In this document: positions 18,590 to 48,624 of the stretch, piece by piece
Numbering within the stretch: position 1 is the stretch's first letter
Layout of the letters: every line of letters begins with the position of its first letter
Sequence record: OL960577.1
Source: Escherichia phage vB_EcoM_SA35RD
DNA: 64,000 nucleotides
Strand: one strand, 5' to 3'
Notes under the pieces: generated by a model
Told to the model about the DNA's origin: nothing
What the model saw: the letters and a program-made list of their open reading frames with translations, nothing else
The model's database searches: none
Position numbers and translations under genes: made by a program

Positions 18590-19549
18590 TTATGATTTTA
18601 ATGCATTCATTGCGTTAAAAAGTTTAGAGTACTGCAACTGGAGATTGGTCACCACCTGTTGAGCATCACGAAGCTTAGCTTGTGCTTTGTCAAGTTCAAC
18701 GGACAGTTGGTCTACAGTAGCCTTGATTTGGTTGTAATGATAATCTTCGGCCGGAAGAAGGTCATTAGAAACATTTAGTTTTACTGCCGACAGTTTGCAC
18801 ACATTTGGCAAACCTTTAAACATACCAGATTGTGCTGGAGAATATGCGCCTAGAACCTCTGCATTACCGACTGGTGTTGCTGTAATATTGCCTTCAAACA
18901 ATGCATTTTCCTTTTTAAGATTTTGATAGTATTCAGAGTCTTTGTGCCACCATGGCGCAGGAACCTTTTTACCAATAGATACACGAGCTTGGATAGCGAT
19001 ATGGCCCTTATTCTTGATAGGGTCGATAATATTAAGCTCACGAGAATAAATTGCTTTAATCTGGTGGATATTATCACCTAAAACTTCCAACGCTTGGTGA
19101 AATACACGAGCAACGTTATCATTCTTAGGTTTATACGTAAGAGTGAACTCATTCTCACTGATAACCATGATTTCCAACTTATCATAAGTATATTTCAAAT
19201 GTTTCATGTTAATTGCTTGAGGACGAATACGAGAAGCAATGGCCATCAGATTGTTAAGGTTATTCCGGAACTGCTTAGCGAAATATTGTCCTTCACCGCC
19301 AATACAAAAATTACGAAGTTTCTGTTTGGCCAATAAACGGCTGAACTCACCATTTTTAATGAACTCTTTAACGGGTGTGTTAGTAACACATTCAAATTGA
19401 GTAAACTTACGAGAATTAATCCCATAATACGAACAGATTTCCTCAATCTCTTCAGGAGTCTTTACAGGCATACGGATAGGATTAGGTCCTGGAGTATATG
19501 CGTTCGAGGTAAATTCTTTGATAAGTTCTCTACGTGTAATAAAAGCCAT
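18590..19549 (-). CDS. hypothetical protein (319 aa)
   Basis: Track ORF; C-terminal coiled coil. Confidence 0.55.
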   Translation of the reverse strand: MAFITRRELIKEFTSNAYTPGPNPIRMPVKTPEEIEEICSYYGINSRKFTQFECVTNTPVKEFIKNGEFSRLLAKQKLRNFCIGGEGQYFAKQFRNNLNNLMAIASRIRPQAINMKHLKYTYDKLEIMVISENEFTLTYKPKNDNVARVFHQALEVLGDNIHQIKAIYSRELNIIDPIKNKGHIAIQARVSIGKKVPAPWWHKDSEYYQNLKKENALFEGNITATPVGNAEVLGAYSPAQSGMFKGLPNVCKLSAVKLNVSNDLLPAEDYHYNQIKATVDQLSVELDKAQAKLRDAQQVVTNLQLQYSKLFNAMNALKS

Positions 19550-19575
19550 TTTATATTCCTCATGTTGAAAAATTT

Positions 19576-19604
19576 ATTATACTCCAACCATCCTTGGTTG
19601 TACA
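19576..19604 (-). promoter_or_regulatory. early promoter cassette (-35 TGTACA, 17 nt, -10 TATAAT), same spacer hairpin
   Basis: Near-identical 28-nt core to 18546..18575. Confidence 0.55.
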
Positions 19605-20600
19605 TCATTCCTTAAGAAGTTTTACTACCTGAATAAGATTAGCTCGTTCTGTTTTATTTTTACCATTTAAGCCTGCTAATCGTGAGATTTCATCGTCAGT
19701 CTGTTGAATAGTTACATTAAGTTCGTTAATCAAAGCTTCAAAGTATTTGATTTGCTCAGCATGTTTTGATTCAAATTTCTGAACCGGAATAACGTCTTGG
19801 TTTAGTTCATCAATAAGGTCTTTAAGAGCATCTTCTTGGTTGATATCATATTCAACTTCTTTTATTTCTTCAACGAGCTCGTCTTTATATCTAACGTCTT
19901 TTAGTCCTGGTGCTGGTCCTGAAATCTCTTCTTTAAGAGTACAAACATATCCAATACGGTATCCAATGCCGTCTCGCTTGATATCAACTTCGTCGATAAA
20001 TCCACAATGTTTAAGCCCGGAGCCGATTATGTCAAAATATCCTTGACGTCGTCCTTCAAACGTTACACGAACTACTAAGACAGTTTTACCTGCAACCTTT
20101 TGAAGCTCACATTTATAAAAGTCAGTTGAACCTGAATAACGTGGATGAGTTTTAAAGTTCATCTGACGATCTAGGCCCATTTGTAAGCGTGCTGTTACGG
20201 CCATAAAACGTGTTTGGTTCTCGTTAAGATGAGCAACAATCCATTTCAAAGGCATTTTACACTGTTCACGGCCGAACAAATCGGTACGTCCTAAATTACG
20301 CAGGATATTGTTAGAGTTAATCATCGACAGAACGTTAAGTTTATTCAGCGCGCTGAAGATTCCATCAGCCATTGATTTTCCATAACCTTTACACGCTTTA
20401 ATAAGTGCTCGCGGCAGATTAGTATAGATTTCAGACGGCATATGAAAATCAAATTTACTAACCAGTAATTGATGAACTTGGATAGCAATTTGTTCATAAT
20501 TAAGTGCTCTGCGATCGTTATGGTCTTTAAACCACACTTTAATCTGTGAAGCACATAAACCGTTAATTTCATGTTTTACCGCATCAGATGTAATGCTCAT
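19605..20600 (-). CDS. hypothetical protein (331 aa)
   Basis: Track ORF. Confidence 0.55.
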   Translation of the reverse strand: MSITSDAVKHEINGLCASQIKVWFKDHNDRRALNYEQIAIQVHQLLVSKFDFHMPSEIYTNLPRALIKACKGYGKSMADGIFSALNKLNVLSMINSNNILRNLGRTDLFGREQCKMPLKWIVAHLNENQTRFMAVTARLQMGLDRQMNFKTHPRYSGSTDFYKCELQKVAGKTVLVVRVTFEGRRQGYFDIIGSGLKHCGFIDEVDIKRDGIGYRIGYVCTLKEEISGPAPGLKDVRYKDELVEEIKEVEYDINQEDALKDLIDELNQDVIPVQKFESKHAEQIKYFEALINELNVTIQQTDDEISRLAGLNGKNKTERANLIQVVKLLKE

Positions 20601-20635
20601 AACTATTTCCTCAGATTGAATTGGAACTCAAAACC

Positions 20636-20664
20636 ATTATAACCCGTCCTTGGGTAAAGCGTTT
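20636..20664 (-). promoter_or_regulatory. probable early promoter (-10 TATAAT) with AACCC-aaggac-GGGTT hairpin
   Basis: Read directly; -35 weak. Confidence 0.4.
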
Positions 20665-21190
20665 ATGCGTGAACCGTCTTTAAACGTTCTTCAAATTTCC
20701 GAAGAGTACTAATACGTTCTGCTTTCTGTTTTGTATAGTTTGCAATACGTTCTGAAGTGAGAGCGTATCGTTCGTTTACTGTTTCTTTCATGAAGTCAGG
20801 GATTTCACGAGAAGCTTTAATTTCATCAAACTTATCGAGTACTGCCTGGTCTTCAGCGATTAAATTTTCGTACATCTCGATATCTTTCTTGATAAACTCG
20901 ATATCTTCCTGGGTTACTTTGGATAAACGAGATGCTTTATCCTTTTTGTACTGCTCGTTAGTTTCACGAGACCAGAATAATGTACGTTTTTTGTTGGTGT
21001 TTTTGTAGACTTCCACAATTCCAACTGAATCGATGATAACGATCCAATTCCAGCGAGATTTGAAAATCTGTCCTCCGTCCACGGTAATCTCGTTACCATA
21101 AGCAATGTCATTAAAGAACTTACTTTGTGCTTCAGATTTAAATTTACCGTCGTTATAATTTACCAGGTTGAAAATATCTTTAGCGTTCAT
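20663..21190 (-). CDS. hypothetical protein (175 aa)
   Basis: Track ORF; GGAGG RBS. Confidence 0.55.
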   Translation of the reverse strand: MNAKDIFNLVNYNDGKFKSEAQSKFFNDIAYGNEITVDGGQIFKSRWNWIVIIDSVGIVEVYKNTNKKRTLFWSRETNEQYKKDKASRLSKVTQEDIEFIKKDIEMYENLIAEDQAVLDKFDEIKASREIPDFMKETVNERYALTSERIANYTKQKAERISTLRKFEERLKTVHA

Positions 21191-21217
21191 GTTTTACCTC
21201 CAGTAGTTGATAGGTCT

Positions 21218-21246
21218 ATAATAACATAACTATAGACCTTGTAAAC
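21218..21246 (-). promoter_or_regulatory. early promoter cassette (-35 GTTTAC, 17 nt, -10 TATTAT) with AGGTCTATA/TATAGACCT inverted repeat
   Basis: Read directly. Confidence 0.5.
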
Positions 21247-21248
21247 AA

Positions 21249-21536
21249 CTAAAAGAAACTTTTTTCGGTATTTTTTCCACTGAACCAAACAGACTTCGGG
21301 ATTTTTTGTAATTTTTCAGATTTAAGTTTCTCTTCCTGTTCTTTCTTATATACACCCTTGTCGTACTGGAGCGTCTCTATGGCATTCTTTTGCAAACGAT
21401 CTAAGGTAATTAAGGCTTTAGTTTTTCCTTTCAAGGAAGAGTCCTGGCGAACCTCCTCACTATATTGCATCGTAGAACTAACCATACGATGAGCATACAG
21501 TTCGACTGCGGCTTTAATTTTTTGCATAAAATCCAT
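21249..21536 (-). CDS. hypothetical protein (95 aa)
   Basis: Track ORF. Confidence 0.45.
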   Translation of the reverse strand: MDFMQKIKAAVELYAHRMVSSTMQYSEEVRQDSSLKGKTKALITLDRLQKNAIETLQYDKGVYKKEQEEKLKSEKLQKIPKSVWFSGKNTEKSFF

Positions 21537-21673
21537 AACATATCCTCTTTGATTTGTACATCATTATTTTAAATATTTCTATGCCCTCAGTAGGTTCCTG
21601 GTGTCCTTCTTTGAGGTAAGCCATATGATTATTCATCTTTATGGCTTTTGTTACCTCAGAACTTCCTATAAGC

Positions 21674-22675
21674 TTATTTCAGTAAAGTTACTTCAGAGAT
21701 TTCCTCCCAACCATCTTTATCAGTTGAAATAAAATCTGCTACATAAAGAGCGGTACGTAATGATACATTGCGAAGACGAGATACATTAGCCTTCATCCAG
21801 GACAATGCTTTATACGTTTCTGCATCAGTCAGACCACGTTTCTGCATCATGTCAGTAGATAATATTACATCTTCAACTCGAACCATAATCTCTTCATTAG
21901 AGTGTACTCCAAGGTCGAGATACACTGAGCGAGATACTAAAGCTTGAAGGTGTGGAGCAAGTTTCGAACCGCGTTCTAACTCTTTATCGATATCAACGTT
22001 TGTAATGAAAACGATAGTACCTTCAAACTCAAATTCTTTATCAATACCCTTATCATCGAGATAAGATGACGCAGTGCTCCAACAAACTTTGCGTTTATCA
22101 CCGGTATCTAATGCTGCTTTAAGAAGGTTCAGGATGTCCATATCTGAGAATACGTCAACGTCATCGATTAAGAGAACGCTGTCTGCATCACGGTTGAGCC
22201 AAAGTTGTTCGTAAAGGCCAATACCAGAGATTTTACCATTAATGCTTTTGTATTTGATGAAACCATTATCATTAGCATTATTAAGTGCTTTATCCAGAGA
22301 ATACGTCTTACCAATACCGGCTGCACCTGAAATAATGAGTGAACGAATTTTGCCATCGATAATGCCATTCGTCATCATGTTCATTACTTTAAAGCGTTTG
22401 TTGATACGAGTTTTCATATCTTCAGTGCTTTCAACAACTGCAACTGGTGATGTCTCAACTCCTTCCATTACGATGTCTGATTTGAAGACCCATACTCCAC
22501 GTTCAGAACCATCAATCATAACGAAAATTTTACCGTCACCTAAGTGGGAACATTCAGGATTAAGCTTTGCTGGGAACCAGGTCTTTGTGGCAACATAAGA
22601 ACCAGAGATTTCGTTATTACGATAGATACCTTTTTTGATTTGAACGTTGAACATTTTATTCTCCAATTTACTCAT
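21674..22675 (-). CDS. P-loop ATPase (Walker A/B), function unknown
   Basis: 333 aa; Walker A SGAAGIGKT, Walker B LLIDDVD. Confidence 0.6.
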   Translation of the reverse strand: MSKLENKMFNVQIKKGIYRNNEISGSYVATKTWFPAKLNPECSHLGDGKIFVMIDGSERGVWVFKSDIVMEGVETSPVAVVESTEDMKTRINKRFKVMNMMTNGIIDGKIRSLIISGAAGIGKTYSLDKALNNANDNGFIKYKSINGKISGIGLYEQLWLNRDADSVLLIDDVDVFSDMDILNLLKAALDTGDKRKVCWSTASSYLDDKGIDKEFEFEGTIVFITNVDIDKELERGSKLAPHLQALVSRSVYLDLGVHSNEEIMVRVEDVILSTDMMQKRGLTDAETYKALSWMKANVSRLRNVSLRTALYVADFISTDKDGWEEISEVTLLK

Positions 22676-22692
22676 TTCGTTTCGATAGGTCT

Positions 22693-22721
22693 ATAATAAC
22701 ATATCCTAAAAGCATGTACAC
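22693..22721 (-). promoter_or_regulatory. early promoter cassette (-35 GTGTAC, 17 nt, -10 TATTAT)
   Basis: Shares ATGTTATTATAGACCTATC core with 21218..21246. Confidence 0.5.
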
Positions 22722-22751
22722 TACTTTTTAAAAATATTTTAACCCCCTAAA

Positions 22752-22767
22752 GGGACCCGAAGGTCCC
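22752..22767 (-). terminator. terminator-like hairpin GGGACC-cgaa-GGTCCC
   Basis: Perfect 6-bp stem, followed on minus strand by TTTAGGGGG. Confidence 0.4.
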
Positions 22768-22772
22768 CACAT

Positions 22773-23054
22773 TTACTTATCACACTTAGCAACATAATTA
22801 GGCATATCACAGAATACGGAGCGAGTAACTACTCGACCCTTTGACCATGCTTCAGTTGCTTGTCCGGCCGTGCTATTAATATAGCTTGATTTAATGTTCT
22901 CAATACCCTGAGAATGTGATGCATTTACCGAACCATTGGAAGGCCCAGAAGACTGGTTACCACCAGCTCCTGCACTACCGCTGGCTGCACCCGTGGTAGC
23001 ACCAACAGAGAATGCCATCATTACTGCGAATAAACCAATTGCTAATTTTTTCAT
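22773..23054 (-). CDS. small secreted/periplasmic protein (93 aa) with signal peptide and Gly/Ser-rich linker
   Basis: MKKLAIGLFAVMMAFSVGA signal-like N-terminus; two C-terminal Cys; late promoter upstream. Confidence 0.5.
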   Translation of the reverse strand: MKKLAIGLFAVMMAFSVGATTGAASGSAGAGGNQSSGPSNGSVNASHSQGIENIKSSYINSTAGQATEAWSKGRVVTRSVFCDMPNYVAKCDK

Positions 23055-23085
23055 ATTTACCTCAAGTTAAGGGTTATTTATCTAC

Positions 23086-24075
23086 TTATTTATAGTAAGA
23101 ATTATGATTTTCGAGATAGACTTGCTCAAGGAAATCATCCCAGAAACTCATATCTACTTTTTGTTGCATACCATTCTTGGCAGCTTGTTCTGACGCATGT
23201 TCAACTTGGTCAACGATATCTTCTAGGAATTCTTGTACAGTTTTAAACGTATGTTTACCAAGCTTAACATCGAGAATAAATGGAGCATCCTGAAGTGGGT
23301 AAACCAGGTCGCCGGTTTTGTAAATTTCCAATAATTGAAGTCCACCACGACACGCATGACTCAATGCTTTCCAGTCAATACCTTCGTTAGCTTCTGCCTT
23401 ACGAGCACGTTCACCATAGTTCTCTTCCAGTTTAACCAAGATGGCATTGAACTCTTTATTGGTTAACGTGTCTTGGAATTTACGGTCTAACAGATTATAG
23501 AATGTTTGCTTACCTGTTTTCTCGTTTTCGGTTTCAACCCACGAAGCAAATTCACCTATAGGCAGAACATTCTTCATATGTGATAAACGAATTACTGCAC
23601 CGTTATCAAAGTATTGTCCCCATTCATTAGAACGTTTAAGGGCTTGACGAAGAACAGCCAGTCGAGAACCCTTGACACCATATTTAGAAGCTTGCTTACG
23701 GACGTACCCTAAATAAGATTTCATGTTAGTGGTATAGAAACGAGACCTGTTATCTTGAATATACTTCCATACATCAGGCAAATCAGATTTAACTACTAAA
23801 CTTTGTGGAGTGTGAAGCATATCTAATGCGACAGTTTCACCGTCCGCAGCTAGTTTAAAGAAATATTTGAGACTATACAACTCATGGTCCACGTCGTCTT
23901 TTGTGTTCTTAGAAGATGTGTTATTCGTGTTCTTGCTCATATGTTCTTTAACGTTACCGGTCAAGATATCACGAGCATGAGGGACATAAATTTCTTTAAA
24001 ATCAACGTCAGATTCTGGGGTAGACGTTCCATAAAGGTGGCTACCAAAGTAGCCTTTCATAATTGTTTTCATCAT
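23086..24075 (-). CDS. putative nucleotidyltransferase-fold protein (329 aa)
   Basis: N-terminal GSHLYGTSTPESDVDF fits the Pol-beta-superfamily G-S-x(9-13)-D-x-D motif; otherwise uncharacterised. Confidence 0.45.
   Translation of the reverse strand: MMKTIMKGYFGSHLYGTSTPESDVDFKEIYVPHARDILTGNVKEHMSKNTNNTSSKNTKDDVDHELYSLKYFFKLAADGETVALDMLHTPQSLVVKSDLPDVWKYIQDNRSRFYTTNMKSYLGYVRKQASKYGVKGSRLAVLRQALKRSNEWGQYFDNGAVIRLSHMKNVLPIGEFASWVETENEKTGKQTFYNLLDRKFQDTLTNKEFNAILVKLEENYGERARKAEANEGIDWKALSHACRGGLQLLEIYKTGDLVYPLQDAPFILDVKLGKHTFKTVQEFLEDIVDQVEHASEQAAKNGMQQKVDMSFWDDFLEQVYLENHNSYYK
23087..23094 (-). promoter_or_regulatory. late promoter TATAAATA upstream of secreted small protein
   Basis: Forward tatttata, about 33 nt upstream of start at 23054. 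Confidence 0.5.
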
Positions 24076-24545
24076 TTAGCCTTATATTCAAGAGTAGGAC
24101 AGACTTTTTCTTTACGAGCTTTAAGGTATTCACCTATTAATGATTTCTTACGTTCAATAGGCTCAAGTCCATTTTTAATTCGTTCTTGGTTTTGCGCAAT
24201 GAGCTCAATTTCTTTATAATATTTTCTGTCGTTATATTTGTCTAACAACCAAGACGGACCAATTACCAACCCGGTAGCAATAAAAGCCATGACTGCTACC
24301 ATTAAAATGCCTACACCAATTGAAGCCGGAACTAATGTCCATAGACTGCTAAAAACAAAGAATTTAGTTAAAATTTCCTGGCCAATGATTGTGACTGCTG
24401 CTAAAATCGCAAATCCAATAATTGAAACAGCCAATACCGGGATTAACGTTTTCCAAAAATAAGCACACAACGTTTTCGGACGATTCCATGTACTATTGAA
24501 CGCGGCATAAAGTTTAAAGTGCCAAGAGTTTTCATTGATAATCAT
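24072..24545 (-). CDS. hypothetical membrane protein (157 aa)
   Basis: Three or four hydrophobic spans; stop overlaps next start. Confidence 0.5.
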   Translation of the reverse strand: MIINENSWHFKLYAAFNSTWNRPKTLCAYFWKTLIPVLAVSIIGFAILAAVTIIGQEILTKFFVFSSLWTLVPASIGVGILMVAVMAFIATGLVIGPSWLLDKYNDRKYYKEIELIAQNQERIKNGLEPIERKKSLIGEYLKARKEKVCPTLEYKAK

Positions 24546-24554
24546 AATAATTCC

Positions 24555-25085
24555 TTATTTCAAAGTTGGGATAATAGAATCGAGATAAGCTTTAAGAGCA
24601 ACTGCTTCATCTTTGTCTAATGTAATGATATGTTGACGAAGGTCATCAATTTGACGAATAACTACGACATCACCATCTTCATAAGAAGGATTAACGCCTA
24701 GGACTGTTGTATAGTCAGGGCGGTCCTGATTTGTAATAAAAGCATTACGGCATTTAGCCCATTGAAGTTTGGCCTTTTTAGCTGTTTCAGATTCCACGAA
24801 TTCTTTCACCTTAGTGACGAATGTTTTCCAATTATTAATAGAAAAACATTCGTCTTCAGTTTCGATATTAACCCCACTATAAAGTCCATGATAAAAACGA
24901 ACTTGAAGGTCTTCGTCAATGTTAATTACAGATGCATGGCCCGGTGGATTGAGTTTCAAAATCTTGTCCAGTTCCATAGGAAGAATAGTAGCAGCATCAT
25001 CTTCTTGTGTCAGAACATACACATAACCACGTTTTTCGATACATAAATCACCAAACAACTCGGTTGTTTCAATTACAGTTTTCAT
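24555..25085 (-). CDS. hypothetical protein (176 aa)
   Basis: Track ORF. Confidence 0.5.
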   Translation of the reverse strand: MKTVIETTELFGDLCIEKRGYVYVLTQEDDAATILPMELDKILKLNPPGHASVINIDEDLQVRFYHGLYSGVNIETEDECFSINNWKTFVTKVKEFVESETAKKAKLQWAKCRNAFITNQDRPDYTTVLGVNPSYEDGDVVVIRQIDDLRQHIITLDKDEAVALKAYLDSIIPTLK

Positions 25086-25255
25086 TTATTCACCAATTAA
25101 AGTTTCAACAAAATTCACCAAAGCATTCTGGCAAGCATCAACCTGATTTTCGTAAAAGTCTCCGCTATCATTTACCGCATGATAAGCTACATCATTCAAA
25201 TCTGAATCGGCTTCACGTAAGTCACGGATAAGGTCCATCAATTTATTAGCTTGTT

Positions 25256-25372
25256 CACGGGTCATTTTACCATACTCGTTTCAATAAGATTCACTATGCC
25301 GTTTACCATGTTATAAGTAAACATCGGATAATTGTATTGTACTACAACATAAGCGATAAGCAAAAGTTTCAT
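25256..25372 (-). CDS. possible small hydrophobic peptide (38 aa)
   Basis: Hand-translated MKLLLIAYVVVQYNYPMFTYNMVNGIVNLIETSMVK after promoter cassette and GGAG RBS. Confidence 0.25.
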
Positions 25373-25400
25373 TTTGTTCTCCATTTGTTTTGGTAGGATT

Positions 25401-25430
25401 ACTATATCATAGTCCTACCAAGACGTAAAC
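25401..25430 (-). promoter_or_regulatory. early promoter cassette (-35 GTTTAC, -10 TATAGT)
   Basis: Read directly; leader CAAAACAAATGGAG. Confidence 0.45.
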
Positions 25431-25645
25431 TACCGATTGTGTTTTAAATGTTGATAAAGCTCTTCAACTTGTTTAGGGTCCAGGTAAATAACATCATCAT
25501 CTTGCTCAATGGAAATTCCGCCAGTATTACCTTCAACGAAATTACATTCGCATACTTCAACGGTGCGATATACATCACCAACTGGATGCCCAGGCTCCAG
25601 AACAATCACACCATCTTCAGAACAACCGCTTGGGTCATATAACAT
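25430..25645 (-). CDS. hypothetical protein, MLYDxxGxSEDGV family
   Basis: Track ORF 25430..25720 trimmed to MLYDPSGCSEDGVIVLEP. Confidence 0.4.
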   Translation of the reverse strand: MLYDPSGCSEDGVIVLEPGHPVGDVYRTVEVCECNFVEGNTGGISIEQDDDVIYLDPKQVEELYQHLKHNR

Positions 25646-25736
25646 TACAGTTTCCTCGCTAACCATGAAAAGAATAAACCAATTAAAACAGGTCCTACAG
25701 TCATTGTTAACCAAGCCCAAGGTTCAAGATAATAAA

Positions 25737-25901
25737 TCATCTCATGCTCCTGTGCCAACAGTTTCTTGGTTCACGTTTAAAAATTTCATCATGCATTGAT
25801 TGACAACCAACACAATATATCACCACCATATCATCTTCAGCGCTTTCAGGTAAAAGTTCAAGTACACCGTCTTCAGATTTTCCAGTATAATCGTAAAGCA
25901 T
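25737..25901 (-). CDS. hypothetical protein, MLYDxxGxSEDGV family paralogue
   Basis: Track ORF 25737..25928 trimmed to MLYDYTGKSEDGVLELLP. Confidence 0.4.
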   Translation of the reverse strand: MLYDYTGKSEDGVLELLPESAEDDMVVIYCVGCQSMHDEIFKREPRNCWHRSMR

Positions 25902-25908
25902 AATATCC

Positions 25909-26089
25909 TCACATAATCTCGTTAACATACATTTGCAATTCGGTGTGGGCTTCGGCCATCTTTTTCATAGCTCTGTTAATGTCGATGTCTCCATCTTCGC
26001 AACCATGAGCATTTTCCCAATCAGATACCGCATTAGCGTACTCTTCAATCAAAAACATTAACTTAGAAATTTTTTCTTTACGTGTCATA
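25909..26089 (-). CDS. hypothetical protein (about 59 aa)
   Basis: Track ORF 25909..26157; start set to MTRKEK downstream of promoter. Confidence 0.4.
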
Positions 26090-26115
26090 ATGTTCTCCTC
26101 TAGTAAGTAAGGACT

Positions 26116-26144
26116 ACTATAACACAACCTGAGGAGAAGTAAAC
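26116..26144 (-). promoter_or_regulatory. early promoter cassette (-35 GTTTAC, 17 nt, -10 TATAGT)
   Basis: Read directly. Confidence 0.5.
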
Positions 26145-26155
26145 TGATAGATGCC

Positions 26156-26185
26156 AAAAAGCCCCAACCATAAGGAAGGGGCTAG
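26156..26185 (-). terminator. rho-independent terminator, copy 1 of a repeated hairpin element
   Basis: Minus strand GCCCC-TTCCTTATGGTT-GGGGC followed by TTTT. Confidence 0.55.
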
Positions 26186-26189
26186 TAAA

Positions 26190-26492
26190 TTAGATAGATG
26201 TAGGCTCTAATTTTATTTTCATGAACTCGGCAAATTGTCTGGCAGTTTTTATGCCTTGTTCATGGCATTCAAATGCATCATCACAGGGGCTATTTTTGTA
26301 ATGCTTTGCCATATACTTATAGAATTTTTCAGAATTCTCGACATTTTGAATTTCAAACAAAGTATATACGTTTTTAATCCCTGATTCCATAAAGTTATCA
26401 AAATATGGGTCGGTGTACGCAGTACCAACGATAGGAGTTGTTGCTGCAAAAAACCCCAGCATCGCCATGACAGCTATCGCTCTTAAGGCCAT
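26190..26492 (-). CDS. rI: lysis-inhibition protein rI-like
   Basis: 100 aa; hydrophobic N-terminus; resembles T4 RI as I recall it; position next to tk. Confidence 0.6.
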   Translation of the reverse strand: MALRAIAVMAMLGFFAATTPIVGTAYTDPYFDNFMESGIKNVYTLFEIQNVENSEKFYKYMAKHYKNSPCDDAFECHEQGIKTARQFAEFMKIKLEPTSI

Positions 26493-26504
26493 ATAGGCCT
26501 CCTG

Positions 26505-26717
26505 TTAATTTTGACCAGTATTTATTTTTCGCCTTTGGACGGCCTTAACATCTGTGAGGTATTTTTCCAGCTTGCGCTTGCGTGTATAATCAGCTTTAGA
26601 ACCAGTTTGACGGATATCCTCGTTTAAATGAGAAATAGAATGTCCTAATTCTCTTCGGATTTCATCCAATTGGGTTACAGTAAGATTACGAAGTTGTCTT
26701 TCGTTTAATTGCTGCAT
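26505..26717 (-). CDS. hypothetical protein (70 aa)
   Basis: Track ORF; late promoter immediately upstream. Confidence 0.45.
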
Positions 26718-26741
26718 ATATACCTCTTGGTTAGATATTAG

Positions 26742-26749
26742 TATTTATA
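26742..26749 (-). promoter_or_regulatory. late promoter TATAAATA
   Basis: Forward tatttata, about 25 nt upstream of ORF start at 26717. Confidence 0.5.
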
Positions 26750-27326
26750 ACAACCCTGTCAAATCATTCCAATGCTTCCGGCATAATGACACGTATCTAT
26801 CGGTATCACCAATTTCAATTTGACTGCCATCTGTAATTGGAAGTCCGTCTTCCGTGACTCTAGCTACCATTGTGGCCTTTTTACCACAATGACAGACACC
26901 TTTAAGTTCAACAAGCTTATCGGCAATAGCCATTAATGCTTGAGAACCTTCAAATAGATTACCTTTAAAATCTGTTCGTAGTCCATATGCCATTACCGGC
27001 ACATTGTATACGTCAACAATACGACTAAGTTGATACACCTTTTCAGTAGTTAAGAACTGAGCTTCGTCAACAAATACACAATGAATATCCTTTTGTGCTG
27101 CAGCCCATTTATAGAATTCAAAGATATCCATGTCTTTTGTAATTATATTGGCATCCTGACGAATACCAATACGAGAGACTATTTCACCTTTTGAATCGCG
27201 AGTATCAATAGCCGGTTTAAGAACTAATACACCCATGCCACGTTCTTTATAGTTGTGTGCGGCAGTAAGTAATGAAGCAGACTTACCAGCGTTCATAGCG
27301 GCATATGTAAAAATTAAACTAGCCAT
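26745..27326 (-). CDS. tk: thymidine kinase
   Basis: 193 aa; P-loop YAAMNAGKSASLL and C-terminal Zn-binding CHCGKKATM...CRKHW. Confidence 0.9.
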   Translation of the reverse strand: MASLIFTYAAMNAGKSASLLTAAHNYKERGMGVLVLKPAIDTRDSKGEIVSRIGIRQDANIITKDMDIFEFYKWAAAQKDIHCVFVDEAQFLTTEKVYQLSRIVDVYNVPVMAYGLRTDFKGNLFEGSQALMAIADKLVELKGVCHCGKKATMVARVTEDGLPITDGSQIEIGDTDRYVSLCRKHWNDLTGLL

Positions 27327-27335
27327 AAGAGTCCC

Positions 27336-27518
27336 TTATAGTGAATTCACGTAGTCAATGAGTTCTTGTTCTTTCCTGTCAAATGATTCCATCAATGCGT
27401 GATATTCTTCATCTGTTAAAGGAGCATATTCATCGTACGCATTGGTGGCTGCTTGTTCATCCAATAGGTCATGGATAAGTTCGAACAGTTTAGCTTTCTC
27501 TTCTTTAGTTAATTTCAT
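27336..27518 (-). CDS. hypothetical acidic protein (60 aa)
   Basis: Track ORF. Confidence 0.4.
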   Translation of the reverse strand: MKLTKEEKAKLFELIHDLLDEQAATNAYDEYAPLTDEEYHALMESFDRKEQELIDYVNSL

Positions 27519-27742
27519 TTAGGTTCACCTTCTTTAACGAAATCTGGGTAAGGGTAAAATCCTGAGTAAAACCCTTCACCTTTATGATTGCTACAACCTT
27601 TGTTCGAACAGTAACACCAATAATCAAAATCACAAGCCATTTCGTCATTGCATAAAGCAAAAACTACAGGCCATTCGCATTTTTCGCATTTAGCACCTGT
27701 AAGAATTTTTGTTTGACTCATAGCCATGTCACCTTTAAGCAA
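27515..27742 (-). CDS. hypothetical Cys-rich protein (75 aa)
   Basis: Multiple Cys/CxxC pairs. Confidence 0.4.
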   Translation of the reverse strand: MLKGDMAMSQTKILTGAKCEKCEWPVVFALCNDEMACDFDYWCYCSNKGCSNHKGEGFYSGFYPYPDFVKEGEPK

Positions 27743-27945
27743 TATTCTTCTACATGTTGTTTACGGCCTTTCTTATCAATAAAGGTATATTCAACGAATG
27801 TTCCGATGTAGTCTTTATCTACATCATGTGGACTATTAATTGGGCATTTGGTACGACAAATGCGTTCCCATTGACGAATAATTACTGCCTTATTCTTTGG
27901 GTCATATGGATGTGGATAATGTATATTCATAATAACGGTTCCCAA
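27718..27945 (-). CDS. hypothetical protein (75 aa)
   Basis: Track ORF. Confidence 0.4.
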   Translation of the reverse strand: MGTVIMNIHYPHPYDPKNKAVIIRQWERICRTKCPINSPHDVDKDYIGTFVEYTFIDKKGRKQHVEEYCLKVTWL

Positions 27946-28424
27946 TCAACAATCACAATTTCTAGTTTAGTAGAATACGTATCTAAAATCTCTTCGATGA
28001 CATCCCAGTTTCCACCACCAATACCTGCACCAATTCTTGGCATATAAATTACAGGCTTTATTATCTTATTCTTTCCGAATTCATTTAATTCTATTATACA
28101 ATTCATTAAAGCATAGTACTCAAAATTAGGTCCCGGCTCAAACTGTGTATAAAGATTAAAGCAATAAGCTTTATGGGTCTTAAAATATTTTTCATAAACC
28201 GAATAAGTCCCGAGTTTAGACTCGTCTCCGAATTCGGTTTGAAGTTTATCGGCTTCCAGAATTTTTGGATAAGCCTTTGCTAATTGTCCTGCCACACCGG
28301 CGCCCATTGTATGAAAACAATTACACCCATGAGCAATATTATTACCTTTAGAAAACAGGGCGACAATATCGCCCTTGATGTAGTTTTTAATCACTTGCTG
28401 CAAGTCCTCTATTATAAGAGTCAA
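27927..28424 (-). CDS. hypothetical protein (165 aa), possibly macro-domain-like
   Basis: NIAHGCNCFHTMGAGVAGQL loosely resembles macro-domain N-x-A...G-G-V motif; weak. Confidence 0.35.
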   Translation of the reverse strand: MTLIIEDLQQVIKNYIKGDIVALFSKGNNIAHGCNCFHTMGAGVAGQLAKAYPKILEADKLQTEFGDESKLGTYSVYEKYFKTHKAYCFNLYTQFEPGPNFEYYALMNCIIELNEFGKNKIIKPVIYMPRIGAGIGGGNWDVIEEILDTYSTKLEIVIVDWEPLL

Positions 28425-43122: not shown

Positions 43123-43199
<77 letters not shown>

Positions 43200-43205
43200 A
43201 ATATA

Positions 43206-43279
43206 TGACCCAGACCAGATTCGAACTGGTAACCTTTCCCTTATGAGGGGACTGCTGCTAACCATTGAGCTACAGGGCC
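43206..43279 (-). tRNA. tRNA with CAU anticodon (Ile2/AUA-decoding or Met)
   Basis: Acceptor GGCCCTG/CTGGGTC (one U-U mismatch), anticodon loop CTCATAA, T-arm ACCAG-TTCGAAT-CTGGT; 3-bp D-stem. Confidence 0.6.
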
Positions 43280-48601: not shown

Positions 48602-48609
48602 TATAAATA
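48602..48609 (+). promoter_or_regulatory. late promoter TATAAATA for gene 53
   Basis: Exact motif about 43 nt upstream of gp53 start. Confidence 0.7.
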
Positions 48610-48616
48610 GTATTAT

Positions 48617-48624
48617 TATTTATA
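48617..48624 (-). promoter_or_regulatory. late promoter TATAAATA for gene 4 (divergent)
   Basis: Forward tatttata about 24 nt upstream of gp4 start. Confidence 0.6.

Follow-up and report, generated by a model that had tools for sequence, protein, structure and literature searches.

The 64,000-nucleotide stretch of Escherichia phage vB_EcoM_SA35RD considered here (sequence record OL960577.1; hereafter the window, i.e., that whole stretch at its full length) carries, between positions 21674 and 24545, four adjacent open reading frames (ORFs) which an initial annotation, made from the letters alone, had described as an uncharacterised cluster reminiscent of nucleotide-signalling or counter-defence modules. 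All four ORFs are present where that annotation placed them. Like all the genes of interest here, they lie on the minus strand, and among them is the gene of a nucleotidyltransferase, which is the main subject of this work. Positions 21000-25200 share 97-98% identity with many Escherichia and Shigella Mosigvirus genomes, and the window is a segment of such a genome (i.e., T4-like, Straboviridae). In transcription order, after a MobD.1/y05I homologue, the four genes are the following (lengths in amino acids, aa):

24072-24545, minus strand: inner-membrane protein of 157 aa; PHROG 944 'membrane protein', E=7.5e-54
23086-24075, minus strand: nucleotidyltransferase of 329 aa (second ATG, 328 aa, in many records), orthologue of T4 NrdC.11 and long-form member of the RlaP family
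22773-23054, minus strand: secreted/periplasmic protein of 93 aa, predicted from its ORF; PHROG 2243
21674-22654, minus strand: AAA+ ATPase, orthologue of T4 NrdC.10, of 326 aa from its probable start (the mechanical ORF runs to 22675)

When the T4 nrdC-tk interval is searched with tblastn, the nucleotidyltransferase is 77.7% identical to nrdC.11 (NP_049709), of which it is the syntenic orthologue, and the ATPase is 77.3% identical to nrdC.10; neither the membrane ORF nor the 93-aa ORF has a T4 counterpart in that interval. Conservation in T4 thus holds for the two enzymes and stops short of the other two genes, and the region corresponds to what T4 has between nrdC.10 and mobD.1, in the form found in Mosigvirus. 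As early as 2006, nrdC.11 was assigned a nucleotidyltransferase domain and nrdC.10 an AAA ATPase domain (PMC1524935), and the GenBank relatives of both genes bear matching annotations. The label 'uncharacterised' is therefore inappropriate: these genes were already known and annotated, and the window contributes one more orthologue.

That the 329-aa protein is a nucleotidyltransferase of the Pol-beta superfamily with conserved catalytic residues, as the initial annotation had proposed from a GS...DxD signature at its start, is supported by its homologues. Its N-terminus reads MMKTIMKGYFGSHLYGTSTPESDVDF and contains the GSHLYGTSTPESDVDF motif. Homologues drawn from a library clustered at 50% identity are abundant (3242 representatives at E<=1e-3, and 742, mostly full length, at E<=1e-30), and in an alignment of the protein with 69 representatives of 33-52% identity (n=70) the residues G11, S12, S22, D23, D25, Y132, R223, K236, R243 and G273 are invariant, whilst D61, D63, D85, H240 and K271 are conserved in at least 90% of the sequences. 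Both the GS and the DxD of the signature are thus among the invariant positions, and the acidic residues, the three further aspartates included, are retained across the homologues. A search against family profiles places the protein in Pfam RlaP (PF10127; 'RNA repair pathway DNA polymerase beta family' in the words of Pfam), where it scores 49.5 bits, the curated cut-off being 23 (E=5.8e-13), and the alignment running over residues 7-136 only, on profile positions 23-143 of 249. In a profile alignment, D61 and D63 fall on invariant aspartates of canonical RlaP.

The AlphaFold2 model of the protein (predicted local distance difference test, pLDDT, 93.7; predicted template modelling score, pTM, 0.83) begins with an alpha/beta nucleotidyltransferase domain and ends in a helical one, and has a small beta-hairpin insertion at residues ~177-201. 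This reproduces the RlaP plan of an N-terminal nucleotidyltransferase followed by a C-terminal helical domain. The structure prediction upholds the expected fold and does not uphold the suggested resemblance to cGAS and DncV. Alignment and predicted structure together establish a catalytic core (hGS...DxD with further conserved aspartates) and, as modelled, a helical C-terminal domain, both as in RlaP. Searches of the PDB, with single sequences as well as with profiles, found no relatives of solved structure for the nucleotidyltransferase, the ATPase or the membrane protein. The phage protein is longer than canonical RlaP (~330 aa versus ~250-270 aa), with the beta-hairpin insertion in its C-terminal half, and a profile-profile comparison between the long phage type and the canonical short type gives a probability of 93.7% (E=1.8e-7) over residues 2-131 only. 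It is because of this restricted coverage that we class the phage protein, on the basis of these alignments, as a distinct long-form RlaP subfamily with a differing C-terminal domain.

What enzymes of this family do is known from two Pseudomonas proteins, PfRlaP and PaRlaP, which are encoded between rtcB and rtcA and were characterised in a preprint of December 2025 (PMC12776372). With a preference for Mn2+, both join one or two nucleoside monophosphates (or their deoxy forms) to the 3'-OH of RNA; DNA and protein are not substrates, and in a mimic of a cleaved transfer RNA (tRNA) it is the broken end that is favoured; moreover, use of RlaP before ligation by T4 Rnl1 partly restored the aminoacylation of a tRNA lacking one anticodon-loop nucleotide (PMC12776372). 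The similarity network of the same preprint places T4 NrdC.11 in the RlaP family (PMC12776372), and an earlier comparative study had predicted that phage RlaP restores, before ligation, the nucleotides removed by nucleases such as RloC (PMC7824862). Given this literature, the view that no function can be drawn from the sequence is out of date.

Bacterial relatives of the nucleotidyltransferase, like RlaP itself, occur in operons with RNA ligases and RNA-repair genes. When bacterial and archaeal genomes were scanned, 80 loci with homologues were obtained, 44 of them with full flanks, the full-length homologues being 33-52% identical to the phage protein. Ro60, RtcB, RtcA, Hen1 or Pnkp lies within 5 kb of bacterial homologues (35-42% identity) in 17 of the 80 loci (12 of the 44 with full flanks), and a shorter, canonical RlaP paralogue stands near the long form in 23 of the 80, often immediately downstream. 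One such locus (L107, 558-11060) has the gene order Ro60-RtcB-RtcA-long RlaP-short RlaP-Hen1-MoxR AAA-vWA, with the identities confirmed by Pfam; in another (L132, 1088-6802) the canonical short RlaP adjoins Pnkp, again confirmed by Pfam, and the ORF map puts Hen1 upstream and the long RlaP in between. This frequent tandem of long and short forms suggests a distinct role for the long one, and the two forms probably have different jobs in bacteria.

Whether the nucleotidyltransferase also forms a unit with its phage neighbours can be judged from 79 viral loci with a homologue of it (39-99% identity). The membrane gene lies upstream in 43 of them, often adjacent (in the window the first ATG of the nucleotidyltransferase and the TGA of the 157-aa ORF do overlap, as ATGA, in agreement with the initial annotation), and several lineages have one to three small genes between the two. 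The ATPase is found up to 6 kb downstream in 35 loci, with inserts of 0.1-2.3 kb, and not within 6 kb in the remaining 44, and the 93-aa gene occurs in two loci only. The same loci also have rI, tk, rI.-1 and tk.4 in common, which indicates that the linkage is that of the general T4-type gene order, and some lineages (L008, L013, L059) have kept the nucleotidyltransferase, nrdC.9 and nrdC.8 and have no ATPase. In both the window and T4, moreover, a UUCG hairpin and an early-type promoter part the nucleotidyltransferase unit from the ATPase. Nothing here ties the four genes into a functional unit; they are neighbours in a plastic early region.

T4 Pnkp and RNA ligase are the textbook case of a virus that mends tRNA after cleavage by a host suicide nuclease, and RloC-type nucleases have been proposed to defeat this repair by excising the wobble nucleotide as well. 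It is in this context (i.e., T4 Pnkp/PseT and RNA ligase 1 versus PrrC and RloC) that we would place the nucleotidyltransferase. Our preferred reading, to which we give a probability of about 60%, is that the four genes share a conserved order in the early region, probably without being a joint unit, and that the nucleotidyltransferase is an RlaP-type RNA repair enzyme. By analogy to the characterised RlaP enzymes, it would add one or two untemplated nucleotides to the 3'-OH of broken RNA. Once an anticodon nuclease of the host has cleaved a tRNA, the phage polynucleotide kinase/phosphatase would heal its ends, NrdC.11 would put back the nucleotide excised by nucleases such as RloC, and RNA ligase 1 would reseal the tRNA. 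The NrdC.11 step would then stand between end-healing by Pnkp and sealing by Rnl1, and would counter the nucleotide-excising anticodon nucleases, the whole scheme being an extension of the classic T4 RNA-repair counter-defence.

This reading is built on the orthology, the catalytic-domain family, the conservation of the active site, the predicted fold, the bacterial RNA-repair context and the fact that the lineage encodes the partner enzymes, all of which the comparisons establish. As to the last, phage ST0, with 97.9% identity to the window over this region, has annotated genes for both an RNA ligase (gp63-type) and a polynucleotide kinase, and the 3'-OH products of RlaP suit a 5'-P/3'-OH ligase such as T4 Rnl1. 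The classic route against PrrC works without NrdC.11. A counter-defence role for the nucleotidyltransferase region, which the initial annotation had raised together with signalling, is plausible. Should enzymes of the NrdC.11 type restore the nucleotide that is lost, they would supply the third step that the T4 repair pathway has been missing. What the window adds is that the phage form belongs to a separate long subfamily, which in bacterial RNA-repair operons is found beside the canonical enzyme; the other three genes give no hint of an unusual mechanism.

Several observations weigh against this reading. The activity is known only for PfRlaP and PaRlaP, not for the long form (PMC12776372). 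Homology to canonical RlaP does not extend over the full length in the profile-profile comparison, where the C-terminal halves do not align, and substrate choice could differ as a result. The phage gene is not adjacent to ligase or kinase genes, which in the ST0 genome lie ~85 kb from the nucleotidyltransferase, and none of the 79 viral loci has an RNA ligase or kinase within 6 kb of it. Distant phages have genes of NAD salvage, methylases or replication beside it: going by reading of the sequences only, these look like Dcm methylase, UvrD helicase, NAMPT, NadR, primase-helicase and DNA polymerase, with no RNA ligase amongst them. Among T4-like phages, even widely diverged ones, the membrane gene keeps its place before the nucleotidyltransferase and the ATPase its place after it, which may reflect some functional link. 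Lastly, T4 deletions spanning nrdC.11 to mobD.3 are viable on laboratory hosts (PMC9825161), a result that fits an accessory role and gives no positive evidence for it. A GenBank record under the name 'Escherichia phage T4' (OL964745.1, 159,752 bp) encodes only the last 39 residues of NrdC.11, and this shortened genome fits dispensability on laboratory hosts.

The alternative that survives best, unlikely as we find it, keeps the enzyme on RNA and changes its target: it would act on 3' ends other than those of anticodon-loop breaks, be it by repairing or tailing tRNA acceptor (CCA) ends damaged by host toxins or by tailing further RNAs of host or phage. The catalytic core and the RlaP membership fit this equally well, the divergent C-terminal domain could change specificity, and tRNA genes are present in the window and its relatives. 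In vitro, furthermore, RlaP shows little specificity for the nucleoside triphosphate or the RNA, and labels full-length tRNA and ribosomal RNA too (PMC12776372). The company which bacterial homologues keep with ligases and end-healing enzymes (Pnkp, Hen1, RtcB, RtcA), however, points to the repair of breaks, and there is neither a Pfam match to CCA enzymes nor evidence of CCA-adding-type motifs in the protein.

More doubtful is a partnership of NrdC.11 with NrdC.10, in which the ATPase would, for example, remodel RNA-protein complexes or the ribosome and so present the damaged RNA, much as AAA+ proteins of the MoxR type may do in certain bacterial RNA-repair operons. In its favour are the 35 loci with the ATPase downstream, which reach down to 49% identity of the nucleotidyltransferase, the best structural matches of the ATPase (NorQ and CbbQ, both MoxR-type), and the presence of a MoxR-type AAA+ gene near an RlaP homologue in the bacterial locus L107 described above and in one viral locus. 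The latter gene (L078:4596-5309, in IMGVR_UViG_3300014208_000003) lies two genes upstream of a nucleotidyltransferase homologue of 40% identity, and is the only case among the 79 viral loci. Between NrdC.10 and the MoxR ATPase of the bacterial RlaP operon, the comparison shows similarity of the generic core only. Less probable again, in our judgement, is that the order membrane gene, nucleotidyltransferase and ATPase, for all its persistence in T4-like phages, marks a real unit, be it one for membrane-tethered or ATPase-assisted synthesis or repair of nucleic-acid ends or one for a Hailong-like oligonucleotide signal or decoy, with the long C-terminal domain altering the activity.

The Hailong comparison taken by itself, in which the membrane protein would be controlled by an oligonucleotide made by the enzyme, or the inhibitory oligo-dA signal of the host would be mimicked, is very improbable. 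Its sole match is to the HalB fold, which aligns over only 143 residues at 15% identity, and sequence searches find no similarity to HalA or HalB at E values up to 10. Hailong is a host gene pair of another domain architecture, and the phage pairing is not conserved beyond the T4-type gene order: the membrane gene is missing in T4 and some relatives, and its ICP1 homologue precedes a kinase-like gene rather than a nucleotidyltransferase. Pfam, furthermore, assigns the enzyme to RlaP, and the bacterial orthologues of the enzyme stand in RNA-repair operons and not by membrane proteins.

The cGAS/DncV-like signalling or anti-signalling module proposed by the initial annotation has in its favour no more than a generic GS...DxD motif with ATPase and membrane genes close by, and we consider it hardly tenable: the likeness to the CD-NTases of CBASS is that of the Pol-beta superfamily catalytic motif only, no CBASS or CD-NTase model is matched in PADLOC (E<=0.1), Pfam or NCBIfam, scans of all four proteins with PADLOC and NCBIfam give nothing of use as to defence, no cGAS, DncV, OAS or CD-NTase is among the best 50-60 fold matches, the locus lacks a partner effector and its neighbours a sensor or effector domain recognisable by Pfam, PHROGs or PADLOC, and the four genes do not co-occur as a set, given the frequencies above and the lack of two of them in T4. 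Equally hard to credit is a small-molecule or protein target, as in aminoglycoside and lincosamide nucleotidyltransferases or AMPylating MNT antitoxins, since such matches are distant (8-11% identity), Pfam and operon context indicate RNA, and the characterised RlaP enzymes left proteins unlabelled.

The transcription signals around the nucleotidyltransferase gene and its downstream neighbours are the following:

23087-23094, minus strand: TATAAATA, T4 late-promoter-like motif, 32 nucleotides before the ATG of the 93-aa ORF
22751-22768, minus strand: hairpin GGGGACC-UUCG-GGUCCCU, just 3' of the stop of the 93-aa ORF, from a terminator scan
22693-22720, minus strand: sigma-70-type (T4 early-like) promoter TGTACA-16-TATTAT with an upstream TG, preceding the ATPase and kept in relatives

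The first of these had been called a late promoter, and the motif is indeed there; its status as a promoter is less certain. The window has eight copies of TATAAATA versus 8.3 expected by chance, and the copy at 23087-23094 is made up of the codons that end the nucleotidyltransferase gene (TAT AAA TAA). T4 has TATAAATG at this position, and close relatives bearing the insert keep TATAAATA. Downstream of five of the eight copies, this one included, a clear Shine-Dalgarno sequence and an ATG stand within some 25-45 nucleotides on the same strand. A late promoter at 23087-23094 is therefore a possibility, as is late expression of the 93-aa protein. Elsewhere in the window, at 48602-48624, two copies of TATAAATA stand back to back on opposite strands, eight nucleotides apart, at a point where the sign of the GC skew switches and the genes seem to turn to the other strand, and look like a divergent late promoter pair.

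The hairpin at 22751-22768 has a folding energy of -12.9 kcal/mol, no better than that of shuffled sequence, and T4 has an equivalent one, GGGAGCC-UUCG-GGCUCCC, followed by a T run, at its nrdC.11/nrdC.10 junction. It resembles a terminator or an RNA-stabilising element, and would end the transcription unit of the nucleotidyltransferase. The early promoter that the initial annotation had given to the ATPase is borne out by the sigma-70-like sequence (22720-22693, read along the minus strand), whose T4 counterpart, GTTTAC...TACTAT, is in the same place.

The product of the 157-aa ORF is a membrane protein, as had been proposed, and multi-span it probably is not: hydropathy finds hydrophobic stretches of 24 and 38 residues followed by a very basic tail of 55 residues, from which two transmembrane helices are likely, with both ends in the cytoplasm because the N-terminus is basic and the tail very basic. 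Pfam has no match for it. Its family counts 1129 phage records, Vibrio phage ICP1 included, and in T4 the place between nrdC.11 and mobD.1 is taken by the gene of the HNH homing endonuclease mobD (L001:8430-9209), which may have displaced the membrane gene there. The idea that the membrane protein travels with the nucleotidyltransferase outside T4-like phages was abandoned on the evidence of ICP1, where the homologue (within L166:3923-5055, gp169-gp170) has no nucleotidyltransferase by it, and the next gene, with overlapping stop and start, is P-loop kinase-like by eye. The ICP1 protein keeps CxYFWKT near the N-terminus and K-x-CP-x-x-E-[YW] at the C-terminus.

The 93-aa protein has a typical signal peptide, MKKLAIGLFAVMMAFSVGA, as the initial annotation had recognised. 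This peptide and the C-terminal 55 residues (Cys82 and Cys91 included) are conserved among relatives, and the Gly/Ala/Ser linker between them (codons ~20-33, positions 22960-23000) varies by in-frame indels of four to seven codons, with the rest nearly invariant, a pattern that speaks for a genuine small protein that is exported. The family comprises 101 phage records, almost all from Mosigvirus, and 17 protein clusters, none of which could be attributed to a bacterial genome. The gene is, as judged from its distribution and signal peptide, a lineage-specific insertion with a predicted periplasmic product. A relationship to YbgS was rejected: the Pfam match is weak and below the cut-off, bacterial homologues are lacking, and the resemblance is probably compositional.

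That the ORF downstream encodes a P-loop (AAA+) ATPase is likewise supported, the Walker motifs announced for it being present and its length of 333 aa being probably 326 aa. The listed ORF seems to begin seven codons early (22652-22675): the ATG at 22654 (M8) has a GGAG seven nucleotides upstream, and we place the start there because residue 8 is where the PHROG alignment sets in, a close relative (L003) has no upstream ATG, and records of GenBank and RefSeq give 326 aa. The protein opens with a beta-rich domain of ~65 residues, which precedes the AAA+ core and a lid made of helices; the core, which is alpha/beta, and the lid agree with the AAA+ fold. Walker A (GAAGIGKT), Walker B (VLLIDD), N226, R249 and R307 show no variation among 20 homologues (62-99% identity) or among 55 (52-82%), the roles of sensor 1, arginine finger and sensor 2 being assigned by position only. 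Its Pfam AAA matches are below the cut-off, and its PHROG family has no known function. T4 NrdC.10 (NP_049708) has the same position, the same hairpin and early promoter upstream, and the complete set of AAA+ motifs together with the fold. Replication genes surround the ATPase in Vibrio phage D509, and a shorter form lies amid unrelated ORFs in an Alcyoneusvirus.

On either side of the four genes the gene order is that of T4-like phages, with homologues of T4 nrdC.9 and nrdC.8 to the 3' side of the ATPase and, upstream, tk followed by rI.1, rI and several small ORFs:

26745-27326, minus strand: tk, the first in transcription order
24555-25085, minus strand: MobD.1/y05I homologue (Pfam T4_y05I_N and T4_y05I_C)

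Rfam recognises no known RNA family in 19000-28000. Next to the MobD.1/y05I homologue, at 25086-25265 on the minus strand, is an ORF of 59 aa which RefSeq calls a 'helicase loader' in phage ST0, an unlikely label for such a small protein; its sole T4 match in the interval is a weak one (28% identity), to tk.1. Further along the window, genes for tRNA-Arg (TCT) and tRNA-Met (CAT) adjoin each other at 43123-43279 on the minus strand.

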